From the NCBI GenBank assembly GCA_963787255.1, contig CAWBCJ010000029.1:608001-672000 (forward strand): a DNA stretch of 64,000 bases, given 5' to 3'. This stretch comes from Methanobacteriota archaeon (lineage in GTDB: Archaea; Methanobacteriota; Methanobacteria; Methanobacteriales; Methanobacteriaceae). Position numbers and translations under genes: made by a program. The notes under the pieces were generated by a model. That model had not been told where the DNA came from and did not search any database. It saw nothing but the letters and a program-made list of their open reading frames with translations. This document shows, one piece after another, positions 1-27,603 of the stretch (position 1 is the stretch's first letter; every line of letters begins with the position of its first letter).

Positions 1-2
1 TA

Positions 3-215
3 TTTTCCTTTAACATTGTAATGGATGCAGTAATAGCCGCAAAGGGCATAGAAAATATGGAAGGCCCCATTGAAAGACCTAAATATGCCGTTTCAGATAT
101 AAAAGAAGAAAAAGACGTAATATCTTTGTTCATTGACTACATAAATAATTTCAGAAAGGCTAAAGTAAGAAAGAACTATACCAAACACGCATATATGCAG
201 TTGTTTAAAAAATAA
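3..215 (+). CDS. 3' end of an unidentified gene, open from the window edge
   Basis: Frame is open from position 3 (FSFNIVMDAVIAAKG...) to TAA at 213-215, 6 nt before the UDG start. Confidence 0.5.
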   Translation, partial: FSFNIVMDAVIAAKGIENMEGPIERPKYAVSDIKEEKDVISLFIDYINNFRKAKVRKNYTKHAYMQLFKK

Positions 216-221
216 TTAAAT

Positions 222-767
222 ATGAAACTTAAAAGACTTTGCGAAATTGCCAGTACCTGCACAGAATGCCCTCTACATGAAAGCAGAACCAAAGTAGTTT
301 TTGGCGAGGGTCCTGAAGATGCAAAAATCATGCTTATTGGTGAAGCACCCGGAAAAAACGAGGACGAAACCGGAAGGCCCTTTATTGGAATGGCTGGGAG
401 ATTATTAAGCGAAATACTCCATGAGGCAGACCTTGATCGGTCTGAAATTTACATTACATCCATAGTTAAGTGTAGACCCGAAGGGAATAGAAAGCCTAAG
501 AAACCCGAATACAGCACTTGCATAGCGCTTTATCTGGAGAAGCAAATCGAGATAATAAATCCAAATATAATTGGATTGCTCGGAAACAGTGCAGCATATG
601 CTTTAATTGGTAAAAAGAACATTAAGCAAATCCATGGAAAAACCTACGAATTAAACGGTAGAAAATACATGGCATTGTTCCATCCTGCTGCAGCTTTATA
701 TTCTCGTGCACTCCTTCCTCAATTGAAAGATGACATGATAACTTTAAAAAGACAGATTAAATCTTAA
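222..767 (+). CDS. udg: Uracil-DNA glycosylase family 4
   Basis: CxxCPL Fe-S ligands, GEAPGxxED motif, GRPFIG, VKCRP and HPAA motif. Confidence 0.93.
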   Translation: MKLKRLCEIASTCTECPLHESRTKVVFGEGPEDAKIMLIGEAPGKNEDETGRPFIGMAGRLLSEILHEADLDRSEIYITSIVKCRPEGNRKPKKPEYSTCIALYLEKQIEIINPNIIGLLGNSAAYALIGKKNIKQIHGKTYELNGRKYMALFHPAAALYSRALLPQLKDDMITLKRQIKS

Positions 768-887
768 TTTTCCTTTTTTTATGAATTATAGATTATATAT
801 AAAATGATAATTTACTTTTATAATCGTTTTAAAAAATAGCAAGATATTCTTTTAAACATGGTTAAAGAATGAATCTCAAAATTTTAG

Positions 888-1616
888 TTAGGAATATACT
901 ATTTCTTTTAAAGCCAAACAGTTTTTGGGAGCATTGGCTTTATAATCATTATTAAAATAACAGAAACTTTTTTTTGAATCTAATTTTTTAATATTTTTTC
1001 CCCATTTCTCCAGCTCTTTTTGTGAATAGGAATAACGGTATCTATCAGGACCTTTACCGTGAAAACGGACATATGTAATATCTGAAGTGGTTATAATTTC
1101 TTCTGGAAGGTCAGAAGATGAAATTGAACAGAATCCTACATTAAATTCTTTTAAAAGCTCGTAAATTTCATCATCAAACCAGCTTAAATGTCTGAACTCT
1201 ATAATGTTGCTTTTTGAGGAATCTAACTGGTGGAGTGCATTTTTTAAAAAATCAATATCTTTAGACTTCTGGGGAGGAAACTGGAATAATATACAGCTTA
1301 ATTTGTTTTCAAGGATTTCTGCAAGCCTATAAAACCGATTTATTGCGCTTTCTGTATTTTTAAATCTTTTTCTATGTGTAATAATCTGATTAGCTTTTAA
1401 AGTAATCAAAAATTTATCTGGCGTCCTATTATACCATCCCTTAACAGTTTTTTCTGTTGGAAAGCGGTAAAATGTGTTATTCACTTCTATGGTGTTAAAA
1501 TACCTTGAATAATATTCCAGCCATTTTGATTTACTTAATTTTTCAGGGTAAAAACGCCCTTCCCAGTCGTTATAGTACCAGCCGGAACAACCTAGAAAAT
1601 ATCTATTCTCCGTCAT
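888..1616 (-). CDS. DUF72 (YecE-like) TIM-barrel protein
   Basis: GCSGWYY..W...FYP, EVNNTFY, ITH, LFQFPP, EFRHxSW, YVRFHG, YSY, YFNND. Confidence 0.92.
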   Translation of the reverse strand: MTENRYFLGCSGWYYNDWEGRFYPEKLSKSKWLEYYSRYFNTIEVNNTFYRFPTEKTVKGWYNRTPDKFLITLKANQIITHRKRFKNTESAINRFYRLAEILENKLSCILFQFPPQKSKDIDFLKNALHQLDSSKSNIIEFRHLSWFDDEIYELLKEFNVGFCSISSSDLPEEIITTSDITYVRFHGKGPDRYRYSYSQKELEKWGKNIKKLDSKKSFCYFNNDYKANAPKNCLALKEIVYS

Positions 1617-1669
1617 TATGCCTTATTTTTTTATATAATTATTTAAAATAAAAAAAGGAAATTTTTTAA

Positions 1670-1948
1670 TTATTTTATTCCATGCTGTTTTTCGTAGTTT
1701 CTCCATGATTGTGCTACTTCAGGTGCATCGCTTTCCAGGTCGTTTATTATCTCGTTTCTAAGTTCTTTAGAGCTTATTTCGTTTCGATTCATTGCAAGTT
1801 TTTCTGCATCTCTTGTAGCGTGTTCAATTGCTTTCATTTGCTTGGTTACGGTAAATCCTGCGTCTGTAACAGCACTTTCAATGGATTTCCTTAATTTTTG
1901 GGGTTTGAATTGTTCTTTTTTTCCATTTCTTTTAATAACATCTGTCAT
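1670..1948 (-). CDS. Stand-alone ATP-cone domain protein
   Basis: VIKRNG.KE.F...KL..SI..A signature, 92 aa, GAGGTG RBS upstream. Confidence 0.85.
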   Translation of the reverse strand: MTDVIKRNGKKEQFKPQKLRKSIESAVTDAGFTVTKQMKAIEHATRDAEKLAMNRNEISSKELRNEIINDLESDAPEVAQSWRNYEKQHGIK

Positions 1949-2089
1949 TTTTTTTCACCTCTCATTTTTTTAATATTATTTTAAAGTTTTTTATTACTAT
2001 GAAAAAAGAAGTATAAATATAATTTCAAACGGTAGCAAAATTAATTTTAATCAATAAACTTAAAAAATAAAAGAAAATATAATGGAATT

Positions 2090-2371
2090 TTAATATTTCA
2101 TTCCATGAGTTCTTTCGTAGTTTCTCCAGGCCTGGGCAACCTGCTGATCATCCTGTTCCAGATCCCTTAATACAGTGTCCCGTATTTGTTTAACTTCAAT
2201 TTGGTCCATTCCTCTGGCCATTTGGGTAGCATCCTGTGAGGCGTGCTCTATAATTTCTCTTTTTTCGCTAATATCGAATCCTGCATCTTTAACAGCGCCT
2301 TCTACGGACATTCTTAATTTTTCTTCTCTAAACATTTCTCTTTGGCCGTTTCTCTTTATAACATCTGTCAT
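2090..2371 (-). CDS. Stand-alone ATP-cone domain protein, tandem paralog
   Basis: MTDVIKRNGQREMF...KL; GGAGG RBS favours the ATG at 2371 over the longer track ORF; clearly paralogous to 1670..1948. Confidence 0.85.
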   Translation of the reverse strand: MTDVIKRNGQREMFREEKLRMSVEGAVKDAGFDISEKREIIEHASQDATQMARGMDQIEVKQIRDTVLRDLEQDDQQVAQAWRNYERTHGMKY

Positions 2372-2576
2372 ATAATACCTCCTTAAATCGGATCGCAAAA
2401 AATGATTTTGCAATACCAATTATATTAAATTATTTTAATTTAGTATTACTTTTTTATGATCATCAAAATATAAAAGAGTTTACATTGGCCCTAGAAAAGT
2501 ATTAAAAATAAGTGATTTAAGGGAATTATTAGGCTCAAAAAAAACCATAAATTTCTGTTATATAATAATTAGAGAT

Positions 2577-4344
2577 TTAAATTCCTTTATACATCTGTAA
2601 AATTTCATCTGTAGTGGTCGCCTGTTCGGGAGACTTTTCAGCACGCCATCTAATGAAACGGGGGAACCTTAAAGCCAGCCCCTGCTTTTCAGTGCTGTTC
2701 CAGTTGCAGGTGTGAACAGGACTTTTAGTAATTTCAGATCCAAGAACTTCTACAACATATTTTGGATTAAACCAGAAATCGGGCTCCATTTCACGAGAAA
2801 CAATAGCCCTCGCGGGTTTTCGATCTACTCTTGCATCAAGAAGCTTTTGAGGCATTTTTTCCAGTTCATCATCAGAAAATCCAGTTCCCAGCTTACAAAC
2901 AGTCTGGAATGTATCATCATCAAAATTATAAGCAGCACATAAAACCGCACCATAAGTACCGCTACGCCGACCACGTCCGGAATAAGCTCCTAAAATGACT
3001 AAATCAAGGGTATCTGAGAGTTTGGACATGTATTCTTTTTTCCATTTAATCCATGTCCAGTCTCTTCCTCCAGCATGGTAAAAAGAATCTTCTGCACATG
3101 ATTTACAGACAATACCTTCCAAATTCTTATTTAAGCATTCCTGGAAGAATTCATCTATATCATCAAGGTTGGAACTGACTTTTCGATGGGCTAAAGTAAT
3201 GTACTTTGATTTTTCTATTGTTGTTTCAAGTTTTTCACGCCTTTCAGGGTAGCTTGTATGTAAATAAGATTTTCCATCAGCATAAAGAATATCAAAAAGC
3301 ATGTATCTAACTGGAATAGTTTTCTGGTATTCCACGACTTTATATTTTCTTCTTCTCTGCATTAACTCCTGGAAAGACCCAAATATATCATTTTCAAAGT
3401 CATAAGCCATTGCTTCTCCGTCTAAAATCGTTTTTTCTATTTTAACGTACTTTTTAATGTTGTCAACAAGATCAGGAAACTGTTTGGTAACATCGGTCAG
3501 TCTACGGGAAAAAAGTTTCACATTATCATGGGATTTATGTGCCTGGATTCTCTCGCCGTCAAACTTTTCCTCAGCAGAGATATCATGGGACTTGATTTTA
3601 TGGCGTATTTCTTCAAATTTAGATACTCTTTGGGCCAGCATGGCTTTAATAGGCCGGTTAATGGTAATTTTTATATTTTTTACTCCTTTTAATCCACTTT
3701 CCTTTAAAACCTTTGCCACAAATCCTATATCTGAGCTAATGTTGTAGGCATGTTCAAGTTCTGTTTTTTTCTTTTTAGAACCAAAAAATGAGACTGACAA
3801 AGCGTTAAGAATGGTCATATCTCCTGCACCAAGCCTCATAGTGCCTTCAGCAAATCTAGCTATGTATTTTTTACCAATTTCACAGGCTTCAATAAGCATT
3901 GAAGCCAAAGTTCTGATTTTAATTTCTTGGGATCCCTTTCCTCTTGTTAAAGCGATTTTTCTAAAACCTTCAAATACATCCTTAACAGATAGTTCTCCTT
4001 TATAATCAAAATAATCTTTAAATGGATTGGGTCCCTTTTTAATCATTTGAGCGGCTACTTGCCCAATATCGCCAATGTTGCGAGTTTTTTCTTCAACTTC
4101 ACTTTTGGGAGTACTGCTTGCAAGTGATATTGCTGATTGAACCGTTTTTTCGCTTAAACCAAGCACAATATCCTCATATCCTGGTGCAATTCTGCCCATC
4201 AGCAGGTAGCAAATTTCATCTATCTCATGAGACACCTGATTTTTTAAAAATAGCAGCTAGAATGTCAACCATTTCATTTTGTGAGCTTGTTTTTTCAAGC
4301 ATTTCCAAATTCTTTGCAAATTCTTCGAATTTAATTTTTATCAC
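2577..4344 (-). CDS. lig: ATP-dependent DNA ligase with a +1 frameshift near 4240 (probable sequencing error)
   Basis: Motif I EEKFDGER, LDGE, LFDIL, EGIVCK, WIKWK, LRFPRF; N-terminus MIKIKFEEFAKNLEMLEKTSSQNEMVDILA lies in another frame from the GTG at 4344 and joins if one A is removed from an A6 tract. Confidence 0.9.
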
Positions 4345-5282
4345 CTGAATCTTTCAGGTAAATTCTTTTCAAATTGGTTCAGATTTTCAATAATGTTTGG
4401 GGGTTTACAATTTACCAGTTTTTTTGCTAAATCTTCCTCATAAAGCATTTTTTCCTTTAGAGGCAAAGATACTCCGTCTATGGTTTTTGCATCTTTCATG
4501 TGCAGAGAACCTAATGGAACACGGCTTAACTTACCTGAAGGGGTCTGTGATGGGTCTATATTAATCGAATTTCCACGTCTTTCGTGACCGCCCACAACTC
4601 TAAATTCTACCTGCTCATCAACCTTTTTAGCCCATTTACCGGTGAAATTACGTTCTGGGTCCTGCTTTGAATACTGGAAATATTTTTCATAGAATGAATT
4701 TGGTTTAGTTTCATCTAAAAAGAAGAAAACGTGGAATGAATTACCAGTCCAGCTAATAAATGGCTCAAAGTTTTCCATAAGTTCTTCAAATTCATTATCT
4801 TCATTTATAGTTTCAATAAACAAACGTGTGGCTTTCTGGACCTGTTCCGCAGAAATTCCTTCGACTCTGTCTATATCAAAGAATATACGATCTATTTCTT
4901 TACCAGGGCCTTCAGAGTTGGTGGCGTAAAAGAAATCTGCAAGTTTTCTAGGGAGAAAATACTGCCAAACTTTATTTTGGATATCATCCAACTCTTTTTT
5001 TGCATCTTTTAGATGTTCTTCTCTTGATCTAAGCTCTAAAAATTCTAAATCAACGGCTTCTATAAGTTCGTCCACGTATAAAGGCTTTAATTTGGACCCT
5101 CTTTTAAGTAAATATCTTACTTTTCCACGGGGCATCCATATCTTGCCTGCAAGTTCTTTATCCTTTAAATATTTCTTTAATTTTGTTGCAGAAACTGCAT
5201 ATAGCAGTAAAACGTCAATTTCTCCAAAAGGAGTTATCAATTTATCTAGATTTTTTTTGGCAAAGTTTAAAAGTGATGTCAT
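4341..5282 (-). CDS. LigD/NHEJ-type archaeo-eukaryotic primase-polymerase (Prim-Pol)
   Basis: DRIFFDIDR (motif I DxD), SWTGNSFHVF (motif II His), RRGNSINIDPSQTPSGKLSRVPLGSL...GVSLPL (motif III region); stop overlaps the ligase start (GTGA). Confidence 0.72.
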   Translation of the reverse strand: MTSLLNFAKKNLDKLITPFGEIDVLLLYAVSATKLKKYLKDKELAGKIWMPRGKVRYLLKRGSKLKPLYVDELIEAVDLEFLELRSREEHLKDAKKELDDIQNKVWQYFLPRKLADFFYATNSEGPGKEIDRIFFDIDRVEGISAEQVQKATRLFIETINEDNEFEELMENFEPFISWTGNSFHVFFFLDETKPNSFYEKYFQYSKQDPERNFTGKWAKKVDEQVEFRVVGGHERRGNSINIDPSQTPSGKLSRVPLGSLHMKDAKTIDGVSLPLKEKMLYEEDLAKKLVNCKPPNIIENLNQFEKNLPERFR

Positions 5283-5468
5283 AAAAATCAGCTCAATAAA
5301 GATTCAAGCTAATATATTATTATTAGTTAAATAATATTTATTATTTTCTTTTTAATAATTCAAAAATAGATGAAGATTTAAATTAAATATCATTAAAAAT
5401 GGAAAAGTCAAAATTATCTTAAAAATAGGCTTTATTAACCAAAATAAGAGTTTAATGAAATAATTAAT

Positions 5469-5978
5469 TTATACAAATTTTTTGAAACGTTCCTTTCCCA
5501 CTTTACATATTGGACATACCTCGGGTGGTTCTGCTCTTGCACATAGATATCCACAGACACTGCATCTAAATATTGGGAATTCAAGTGAAGATATTACTCC
5601 TCCAGATGGTTCTCCTTTCATTTGTTCTCGCTCTTGAGGCGCTGGTCTCCTTTCGGGGATAGATGTTAACTCTTTTTTACCCTTTAAAATATCTCCTGAA
5701 ACATAGAGGCCGCAGTAACATGTATTATATTCATTTAAATCTGGATCTCTGTAATCGCAGGGGCAGATAATATCCAGGTCTTCTTCTTTATTTCCTGATG
5801 CAAGCCTACAAGGACAAGCGCCGTAACCATATCGCTTATCATTTAATAATATATTTTTTAAAAGATATTTAGTGAATTCTACATCAGGATTCAGGTGGTA
5901 ACCGTGGGCTTCAACATCTTTTTTGACTTTTTGGTAGAATTTTTCCAGCTCTCCATCACTAATGTCATTAAAGCTCAT
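5469..5978 (-). CDS. Ferredoxin:thioredoxin/disulfide reductase catalytic subunit with C-terminal rubredoxin-like domain
   Basis: CPCR, CPC and CYCGLY motifs, plus CSVCGY...CPIC at the C-terminus. Confidence 0.88.
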   Translation of the reverse strand: MSFNDISDGELEKFYQKVKKDVEAHGYHLNPDVEFTKYLLKNILLNDKRYGYGACPCRLASGNKEEDLDIICPCDYRDPDLNEYNTCYCGLYVSGDILKGKKELTSIPERRPAPQEREQMKGEPSGGVISSLEFPIFRCSVCGYLCARAEPPEVCPICKVGKERFKKFV

Positions 5979-6256
5979 TGAAGTTTCTCCCTTATTTCAT
6001 CCTCTTTAAATCCTGTAATAACGTCTTCATTATTAATTACAACAGTGGGGAATGAAAGTTGAGGGTTCCATTTTTGTACTTCATTTATAACCTCCGATCT
6101 CTCATCGCCGGTTAAAAGATCAACATAGATATATTTAAAATCAATTCCTAATTCTTCAAGAAGCATTCTAGTCTTTTTGCACCATCCACATGTACTTAAA
6201 GCAAAAAGAACAACTTCTCCTTTGTTTTTTCCTTCAACATGTTCCATTTTCACCAT
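5975..6256 (-). CDS. Glutaredoxin (NrdH/methanoredoxin-like)
   Basis: STCGWCKK, SFPTVVI, GF; GGAG RBS before the ATG at 6256; stop overlaps the FTR start. Confidence 0.88.
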   Translation of the reverse strand: MVKMEHVEGKNKGEVVLFALSTCGWCKKTRMLLEELGIDFKYIYVDLLTGDERSEVINEVQKWNPQLSFPTVVINNEDVITGFKEDEIREKLQ

Positions 6257-6384
6257 GATCACTCCTAATATTACTCTATAAATTAAGATTTGTAATAAGA
6301 TATACAAATAACTATTTAATTATGAAATAAAACCAGAATTTTATCTGTTCAAGAAATAGAATTTTTTAATAAAATAATGTAAAG

Positions 6385-27315: not shown

Positions 27316-27603
27316 GTGATATTGTTGGTAAAAGTAGTAAAAAGAAAGGGCAAAATTGAATCATATACTCCTAATAAGATTAGAGGCGCTCTCGAGAAAG
27401 CGACCATCGATGCTGGTTACACTGTGGAAGAAAAGAAGGATTTAATAGATGAAATATATACTAAAATCAATAAAAAGTTTGAAAAAGAAGGGAAAATTAA
27501 GAGCGAAAATATCAGGATGTGTCTTCTAACTGAACTGGATGAATGCGAACCATACATAGCTAAATCGTGGAGAACATTTGACAAAAGATATAAATCACAA
27601 TAA
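27316..27603 (+). CDS. Stand-alone ATP-cone domain protein, third paralog
   Basis: VVKRKGKIESY...KI..AL..A..DAG...IAKSWR; start may be the TTG at 27325. Confidence 0.82.
   Translation: MILLVKVVKRKGKIESYTPNKIRGALEKATIDAGYTVEEKKDLIDEIYTKINKKFEKEGKIKSENIRMCLLTELDECEPYIAKSWRTFDKRYKSQ

Follow-up and report, generated by a model that had tools for sequence, protein, structure and literature searches.

What a primase-like polymerase gene, overlapping the gene for a second ATP-dependent DNA ligase and lying among DNA glycosylase genes, does in an archaeon in whose genome Ku is not found is the question raised by positions 222-5282 of the window, that is, of the whole 64,000-nucleotide stretch analysed here (G000:C29:608001-672000, from a 95% complete assembly of a member of the Methanobacteriaceae). 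Open reading frame (ORF) calling gives six ORFs in this region, coding for a family-4 uracil-DNA glycosylase (UDG4), a DUF72 protein, two ATP-cone proteins, the ligase (Lig2) and a candidate polymerase designated AEPx. All the genes named in a preliminary description of the stretch are present according to Pfam and NCBIfam models or, in the case of the Prim-Pol ORF, according to the fold. The answer which we hold to have a slightly better than even chance of being right is that AEPx and Lig2 would fill and seal short excision-repair gaps without Ku, a reading based on the predicted fold and the gene order.

AEPx (4341-5282, minus strand, 313 aa) has no match in Pfam even at an E value of 10, no match in NCBIfam, and only chance matches among PDB sequences when searched both as a single sequence and as a profile (a glycosyl hydrolase at E = 0.12 and a natural killer receptor at E = 0.7). 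The LigD Prim-Pol model PF21686 likewise has no match anywhere in the window's own genome. The relatives of AEPx include 355 matches at E = 1e-3 or better; among the 120 matches listed, every source name shown is "hypothetical protein" and a precomputed Pfam domain is found in 0/120. The motifs FFDxDR (D136 and D138), WTGxSFH (H184) and IDPSQ (D243) are invariant in 43/43 aligned sequences, and GHE and IDPSQxPxGK also belong to the invariant motifs of this alignment. AEPx possesses the DxD pair, the invariant His and the further Asp that mark the superfamily of archaeo-eukaryotic primases (AEP), which we take to be its motifs I, II and III, and judging by these residues it is predicted to be catalytically intact.

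The AlphaFold2 model of AEPx (pLDDT 92.3, pTM 0.90) has the AEP catalytic fold. The top Foldseek ranks are occupied by entries of the M. tuberculosis LigD polymerase domain (PolDom), with 2r9l at E = 3.9e-7 and TM values of 0.55-0.64. In VIA-align comparisons, where rows differing by about 1 in Z are close to tied, the model matches the M. tuberculosis LigD PolDom 2iru_B with Z 17.5 over 236 aligned residues (root-mean-square deviation 3.5), followed by the P. aeruginosa LigD polymerase (Z 16.9), Prim-PolC (16.4) and the Methanocella polymerase of non-homologous end joining (NHEJ) (15.8), while the PriS primase catalytic subunits reach Z 10-12.7 and CAPP 10.9. The predicted structure is thus nearer to PolDom and Prim-PolC than to other AEPs. 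Because of this drop from 15.8-17.5 to 12.7 or less, together with some faint links at the sequence level, AEPx was assigned to the LigD/Prim-PolC class, of which the model makes it a far-diverged branch and not a new fold.

The faint links are as follows. AEPx itself stays below the Pfam gathering threshold of PF21686; its Methanocellales orthologue reaches 26.3 bits where 27.4 would be required, the match spanning positions 4-240 of the 254 in the model, and PF21686 is found on 11% of the members of the best-scoring ESM Atlas cluster. An hhalign comparison with one canonical archaeal PolDom, used as a single-sequence template, gave Prob 5% and E = 0.0074, and in the same weak alignment the DxD, SxH and D..Q..GK motifs and an N-terminal segment are in register. 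Nothing was found with a second canonical PolDom (L091), also a single-sequence template. The AEPx family profile, run against 1.84 billion proteins, retrieved 112 cluster representatives, none of them longer than 355 aa, and did not reach the canonical PolDoms, of which many more than 112 clusters would be expected. The model further shows an additional helical insert around residues 65-110 and no counterpart of the Prim-PolC C-terminal extension, as the whole model (1-313) is aligned and ends at Prim-PolC residue 293, the identity in this structural alignment being 11-13%; PMC5663958 describes the extension as a helix and Loop 3 at aa 294-336. The term "LigD-type" used in the preliminary description is therefore justified at the level of the predicted fold and of motifs in register, but not by the models of Pfam and NCBIfam or by PDB sequences.

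Lig2 (2577-4344, minus strand) possesses the DNA_ligase_A_N, _M and _C domains and the KxDGxR adenylation motif, the Lys of which is invariant in 16/16 orthologues, and scores 479 bits with TIGR00574, as is characteristic of the Lig1 type with DB-NT-OB architecture. Its reading frame is interrupted in the window, a point taken up below. It is about 30% identical to the Lig1 encoded nearby, the separate housekeeping ligase which a search of the whole genome located 2-3 kb to the left of the window (L005:11068-12748; about 605.1-606.7 kb on G000:C29) and which is 76-89% identical to the Lig1 proteins of relatives. A Fpg/Nei glycosylase gene is located between Lig1 and the window, so that Lig1 and Fpg together lie 0.3-3 kb from its left end. 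A weak fourth DNA_ligase_A_M match, just over the cut-off at 27.5 bits, was noticed in a 423-aa open frame at G000:C29:162968-163435 (L004), which may code for another nucleotidyl-transferase-type ligase.

The stop codon of AEPx (TGA, 4343-4341) overlaps the GTG codon at 4344-4342 on the minus strand. This GTGA overlap (4341-4344), pointed out earlier as evidence of coupling, is real and is kept in 7/7 aligned relatives. The start of Lig2 overlaps the AEPx stop in loci L007, L008, L010, L013 and L018 as well as in the window, and lies 33-54 nt downstream of it in L009, L014, L015 and L019. From this arrangement we infer that AEPx and Lig2 are on one transcript. An A/T-rich 186-nt spacer (5283-5468, minus strand; GC content 0.25 in 5001-5500) upstream of AEPx probably carries the putative promoter of the pair, and a run of eight T residues (2537-2544, minus strand), about 35 nt past the Lig2 stop, is a candidate archaeal terminator of the transcript. 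A scan of 1-5600 for sigma-70 promoters and hairpin terminators, in which archaeal signals are not modelled, stayed at chance level (18 against 22.1 expected and 3 against 3.2, respectively). The metatranscriptome run X20 contains a small share (0.09) of the sequence words of 3900-4700, a figure which is silent on expression, and a complex prediction for Lig2 and AEPx with the M. oryzae pair gave no answer (score 0.00) and is neutral on binding.

A scan of genome contigs revealed 100 stretches encoding an AEPx relative, of which the best 80 were kept, namely 14 Methanobacterium loci and 66 others. The order common to the 14 Methanobacterium loci is a glutaredoxin-like (Grx) gene, a ferredoxin:thioredoxin-reductase-like (FTR-like) gene, AEPx, Lig2, ATP-cones and DUF72, then UDG4 and Fpg on the opposite strand, and Lig1. 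Lig2 directly follows AEPx in 12 of them, and outside the genus a Lig2-type ligase follows AEPx in 2/66 loci, L038 (Hadarchaeota) and L047. The polymerase-ligase pairing hence recurs in other genomes, with a Prim-Pol adjoining an ATP-dependent ligase as in the Prim-PolC/LigC pair, the ligase being of the Lig1 and not of the LigC type.

Locus L047, which belongs to a distant archaeon, comprises eight co-directional genes coding for UDG4, a phosphoribosyltransferase, an M50-like protein, DUF72, a LigD-type phosphoesterase (PE), AEPx, Fpg and Lig2. The synteny of the polymerase with UDG and DUF72 genes, for which the preliminary description had proposed a neighbourhood survey, is thereby found in an unrelated archaeon, together with Fpg and PE, and L047 is the key independent case of the linkage. 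A PE gene lies within 1.7 kb of AEPx in 12/66 loci outside Methanobacterium, in five of them directly upstream on the same strand, and a gene for a HhH-GPD glycosylase lies within 3 kb in 7/66. The hosts of the 66 loci belong to Micrarchaeota, Aenigmatarchaeota, Woesearchaeota, Pacearchaeota, Nanoarchaeia, Altiarchaeia, Hadarchaeota, Hydrothermarchaeota, Methanocellales, Methanosarcinales, Archaeoglobales and Bathyarchaeia. AEPx is retained even in very small DPANN genomes of about 0.7-1.0 Mb, and the three DPANN genomes searched have one full-length ligase match each, 39-42% identical to Lig2. In a quick tree the Methanobacterium AEPx proteins form one clade (approximate likelihood ratio test 99), placed loosely with L038 and L047, and the deep forks are weak; acquisition of the AEPx-Lig2 pair by gene transfer would fit these sequence relationships.

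As a separate observation on the AEPx neighbourhood, a small gene matching PF18894 ("putative phage metallopeptidase") lies downstream of AEPx on the same strand in 10/66 loci, belonging to Woesearchaeota, Pacearchaeota and Nanoarchaeia (L044, L049, L055, L057, L061, L065, L067, L068, L073 and L074). A NUDIX gene is present in 7/66 loci, and in the PF18894 loci it is often located upstream of AEPx and divergent from it.

The parallel drawn at the outset with the mycobacterial Prim-PolC/LigC pair is apt, as this is also a Ku-free pair, co-transcribed with FPG in some species. According to PMC5663958, Prim-PolC binds and fills 5'-phosphorylated gaps of 1-3 nt and binds LigC1 and not Ku, and once FPG and the processing of the 3' end have done their part, Prim-PolC and LigC repair uracil and 8-oxoguanine substrates in vitro. 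The two systems have in common a LigD-like Prim-Pol adjoining an ATP-dependent ligase, independence of Ku, a genomic link to Fpg and other genes of base-excision repair (BER), and the occurrence beside them, in some genomes, of canonical NHEJ genes (for AEPx, in G205 and G209). They differ in that the island ligase is of the three-domain Lig1/LigB type and not a minimal LigC, and AEPx is without the C-terminal extension and only distantly identical to Prim-PolC. The AEPx system also has archaeal hosts and PE as a frequent partner.

On the proposed route, UDG4 or Fpg/Nei would remove the damaged base, and the lyase activity of Fpg/Nei would leave a one-nucleotide gap with 3'- and 5'-phosphates. 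The 3' end would be cleaned either by PE, which is unlinked in the window genome, or by an apurinic/apyrimidinic (AP) endonuclease; the PE of LigD has 3'-phosphatase activity. AEPx would bind the gap and insert one or a few nucleotides, and Lig2 would seal the nick, as would Lig1 where Lig2 is missing. DUF72 may be an accessory nuclease, and the ATP-cone genes are probably separate units outside the proposed pathway. In mammals the NEIL, PNKP, Pol beta and Lig III enzymes act in such a sequence: after a Fpg/Nei-family glycosylase-lyase comes a 3'-phosphatase, then a polymerase that fills the gap, and last a ligase. The L047 gene run encodes a set of this kind (Fpg/Nei, 3'-phosphatase, polymerase, ligase), although PE and AEP belong to other enzyme families than the mammalian 3'-phosphatase and polymerase. 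To our knowledge, the gap-filling polymerase of archaeal BER is not settled for most lineages.

The distribution of AEPx was surveyed in 201 genomes from 28 genera of the order, the window's genus being designated g1. AEPx is present in 11 genomes, all from g1, namely in 10/12 g1 genomes and in the window's own. The preliminary description had placed the island in the context of the Methanobacteriales, but it is not a trait of the order, because AEPx is confined to 1/28 genera searched. PE was detected in 9/10 AEPx-positive and 0/2 AEPx-negative g1 genomes, and in 7/13 genomes of genus g9. The PolX thumb domain is present in 85/201 genomes and is near universal in g2 (3/4), g3 (4/4), g4 (19/20), g7 (3/3), g9 (13/13), g10 (18/19), g15 (5/5), g27 and g28, while of the g1 genomes 1/12 has it, and the window's genome does not. 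It is suggestive that the sole genus with AEPx is the PolX-poor one among PolX-bearing relatives, and in g1 AEPx may stand in for PolX. The two resemble each other in their proposed role, short-gap filling after a glycosylase and a lyase, and in their complementary distribution within the order; they differ in having unrelated folds, and their equivalence would follow from the distribution only. PolX was also not found in 9/10 AEPx genomes of other phyla, a count of little weight, as the completeness of these metagenome-assembled genomes (MAGs) is unknown and there is no base rate.

A number of observations weigh against gap filling and sealing by AEPx and Lig2, and they have to be considered together with the alternatives. 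Within the order the AEPx/PolX pattern amounts to approximately one evolutionary event, and it has exceptions, since genome G148 has both AEPx and PolX and two g1 genomes have neither. The preliminary description proposed a complete accessory pathway of base-excision or stationary-phase repair, of which both the completeness and the tie to stationary phase are conjectural; the island is not a self-contained pathway, because the candidate AP endonucleases, encoded by AP_endonuc_2 and ExoIII-family genes, lie elsewhere in the genome. The PE gene is also remote from AEPx: there is no phosphoesterase gene in the window, as stated initially, but the genome does have a single LigD-type PE gene, at a distance of 151 kb (C29:456966-457301). 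Where the aligned N-terminal segment of the PolDom starts in the weak hhalign alignment, its Thr-Lys pair is matched by Gly-Glu in AEPx; this Lys is one of the 5'-phosphate-pocket lysines of PolDom. Finally, the structural scores do not separate the gap-filling type (Prim-PolC, Z 16.4) from the end-joining type (PolDom, Z 17.5).

The last point bears on the alternative that AEPx, PE and the ligase would carry out Ku-independent end joining or microhomology-mediated repair of double-strand breaks, similar to NHEJ, which we consider unlikely without regarding it as negligible. The top structural matches of AEPx are indeed PolDoms of NHEJ (Z 16.9-17.5), PE, which is an end-processing module of LigD, is the most recurrent repair neighbour of AEPx (in the 12 loci mentioned above), and, according to PMC7470946, a ligase with three domains is able to work in the absence of a scaffold. 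The likeness to LigD PolDoms matched by PF21686, including that of the Methanocella paludicola Ku-Lig-Pol-PE system, thus extends to the motifs in register and to PE and ligase as partners. Unlike them, AEPx has no Pfam match, carries the helical insert and has never been found fused to a ligase or PE, and Ku was not found. There is no match to Ku (PF02735) in the window genome at its 95% completeness, so that the absence of Ku noted for the window holds for the whole assembly, and the region immediately left of the window, where Ku or PE would have indicated ordinary NHEJ, contains neither of them. Ku was also not found in 4/5 AEPx genomes of other phyla, and in the fifth, G205, it belongs to a canonical ligase-Ku-PolDom cluster of its own, away from AEPx. 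The genes clustered with AEPx code for glycosylases (UDG4, Fpg and HhH-GPD) instead. According to a 2025 paper (PMC12019639), Ku is present in very few archaea, and there has been no report of Ku-independent NHEJ from the Archaea.

The cluster of G205, a member of the Hydrothermarchaeota, is located at C2:136212-138672 (L092), with a canonical PolDom and AEPx in one genome. Two Prim-Pols therefore coexist there, as PolDom and Prim-PolC do in mycobacteria, and a canonical PolDom accompanies AEPx in 2/5 AEPx genomes of other phyla.

Excision-repair gap filling by AEPx with Lig2 as its partner has also to be weighed against the view that their association is an accident of one genus, in which AEPx would serve repriming, translesion or primer synthesis and Lig2 would be a spare or alternative replicative ligase. 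No ligase adjoins AEPx in 64/66 loci outside Methanobacterium. AEPx is kept in L006, the nearest relative of the window, from which Lig2 is deleted, and in L017, where a remnant of Lig2 is left; Lig2 is therefore dispensable for AEPx. Conversely, ligases of the Lig2 type (at least 55% identity) occur in 9/12 g1, 2/3 g7 and 5/13 g9 genomes, those of g7 and g9 being without AEPx and the g9 genomes with PE not being the ones with Lig2. The g7 locus consists of Grx, FTR-like, Lig2, UDG4 and Lig1 genes (and Fpg in L089) and is without AEPx, ATP-cones and DUF72. All this speaks for an accident, but the overlap or short spacer is kept in the great majority of the genus loci (12/14), and the L047 run and the links to PE and HhH-GPD outside the genus arose independently of Methanobacterium. 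Besides, neither a helicase nor a zinc finger, the domains that repriming Prim-Pols typically carry, was seen in the family, the longest member of which has 355 aa. Such an accident appears rather improbable to us, a little more so than end joining.

Lig2 is, moreover, out of frame in the window as given. The GTG at 4344 opens a frame with a typical ligase N-terminus, which runs for 39 codons as far as a TGA at 4226-4224; the other part of the gene, 552 codons long, is read in the +1 frame (4235-2577), the frame being broken by an extra base at 4232-4234 (minus strand). The ligase, initially described as full-length, thus has all three domains but not an uninterrupted frame. This could mean that the pair is decaying in the window strain and that the ligase is a pseudogene with a real frameshift, as might be expected from the complete loss of Lig2 in L006 and its remnant in L017. 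We judge such decay to be improbable. The extra base is missing from 7/7 Methanobacterium relatives, and Logan contigs of 3/3 covering public runs (X1, X4 and X6, from three studies) have one base fewer at 4232-4234, a further run, X8, having no cover of 4174-4275. The X1 contig is otherwise identical to the window over 436 nt, although X1 may be the source sample of the assembly and is not independent evidence, and it has one base more than the window in the T8 homopolymer, at 2536. In the same assembly the presumably essential Lig1 gene likewise falls into two overlapping frames, owing to a +1 insertion relative to 5/5 relatives. Because of the relatives, the run contigs, the Lig1 insertion and the homopolymer difference, the Lig2 break is very probably an assembly indel and not the mark of a pseudogene, and the two ligase breaks together point to general indel errors in the assembly. 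In a related MAG, the Fpg gene also lies in two overlapping pieces (L007:14120-14903), probably owing to an assembly frameshift too.

That AEPx serves an integrated virus or mobile element as its replicase is highly improbable: mobile elements do encode many stand-alone AEPs (PMC5862659), and the ESM Atlas feature matches of rank 3-6 are mostly viral clusters (scores 0.93-0.94), but no AEPx relative was found in 2.9 million viral contigs (IMG/VR), 50,697 phage records and 72,556 plasmids, the chromosomal position is fixed across the genus, and neither an integrase nor a helicase turns up repeatedly among the clusters of neighbouring genes.

A polymerase of the LigD/Prim-PolC class in a Ku-less repair setting is already known. 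The novelty lies in the archaeal subfamily with its divergent sequence, in its pairing with a three-domain ligase and a free-standing PE, and in the possible replacement of PolX. No description of the AEPx family or of an archaeal pair of Prim-Pol and Lig1-type ligase was found in full-text searches of a library with only a minor part of the subscription-journal papers. Reading the gap-filling proposal for AEPx more widely, one may tentatively suggest that AEPx is the hitherto unrecognised polymerase, LigD-derived and Ku-free, which repairs short gaps in DPANN archaea, in a single Methanobacterium genus, and in members of Hadarchaeota, Altiarchaeia and other archaeal lineages. Its partners would be a stand-alone PE 3'-phosphatase, a Fpg/Nei or HhH-GPD glycosylase and any Lig1-type ligase, in a NEIL/PNKP-like BER independent of AP endonuclease and replacing PolX where it is missing; we would give this broader version distinctly less than an even chance. 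The links of AEPx to PE, ligase and glycosylases make it a testable candidate for an archaeal gap-filling role, and a cultured host is available in Methanobacterium oryzae DSM 11106 (locus L008). If gap filling by AEPx is true, the Prim-PolC/LigC idea would be extended from actinobacteria to archaea.

The remaining genes of the region are less closely tied to the pair. The UDG4 gene (222-767, plus strand) matches Pfam UDG at E = 3e-34 and TIGR00758 at 177 bits, above the cut-off of 125.3, which makes its product a member of the family-4 uracil-DNA glycosylases. It is convergent with the DUF72 gene in the window, and its position is kept in 13/14 Methanobacterium loci reaching that far as well as in the L047 gene run.

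The DUF72 protein (888-1616, minus strand) matches its Pfam model at 232 bits. Its model (pLDDT 88.9) aligns with solved DUF72 structures in VIA-align at Z 26.3 and 23.8, and the next tier at Z 13-16 includes a sugar epimerase (16.0), the AP endonuclease of African swine fever virus (15.1), M. tuberculosis endonuclease IV (EndoIV; 14.7) and UVDE (13.5). The protein is, as modelled, a TIM barrel of the xylose-isomerase-like/EndoIV/UVDE superfamily. The role of a possible AP nuclease, which had been suggested for it, is compatible with this fold, but the sugar epimerases score as high as the nucleases and the two groups are not separable by Z.

The two stand-alone ATP-cone genes are located at 1670-1948 (ATP-cone 1, minus strand, 92 aa, Pfam ATP-cone 43.4 bits) and 2090-2371 (ATP-cone 2, minus strand, 42.1 bits over residues 20-105 of the 109-aa form). 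In ATP-cone 2 the sequence AAGGAGG precedes the ATG at 2371, and the longest ORF begins at a TTG at 2419. Oligo-T runs and A/T-rich spacers divide the ATP-cone genes from Lig2, and TATA-like and Shine-Dalgarno-like elements are found in the A/T-rich spacers before each ATP-cone gene and DUF72. The T8 run after Lig2 and these spacers with their elements suggest that the ATP-cone and DUF72 genes are units separate from AEPx-Lig2. The number of ATP-cone copies varies from 1 to 5 per Methanobacterium locus when ATP-cone 1 is used as a query, and none was found near AEPx in the 66 loci outside the genus with a single 92-aa tblastn query at E = 1e-5. The idea that the ATP-cones tune the pathway by sensing nucleotides finds no support in any comparison outside the genus.

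Directly upstream of AEPx, at 5469-6307 of the window (minus strand), are genes for a ferredoxin:thioredoxin-reductase-like protein with a rubredoxin tail and a glutaredoxin-like protein. Their position is kept in the genus (Grx in 13 and FTR-like in 14 of the 14 loci), and in g7 they are found upstream of Lig2 without AEPx. Between Fpg and UDG4 there is an ORF of 101 aa with no Pfam match, extending from L005:13910-14215 into the window (3-215, plus strand). A third stand-alone ATP-cone ORF, with an open frame of 95 aa, is located at 27331-27567 of the window (plus strand), and the stand-alone ATP-cones form a small paralogous family in the genus, with the island copies arranged in tandem.

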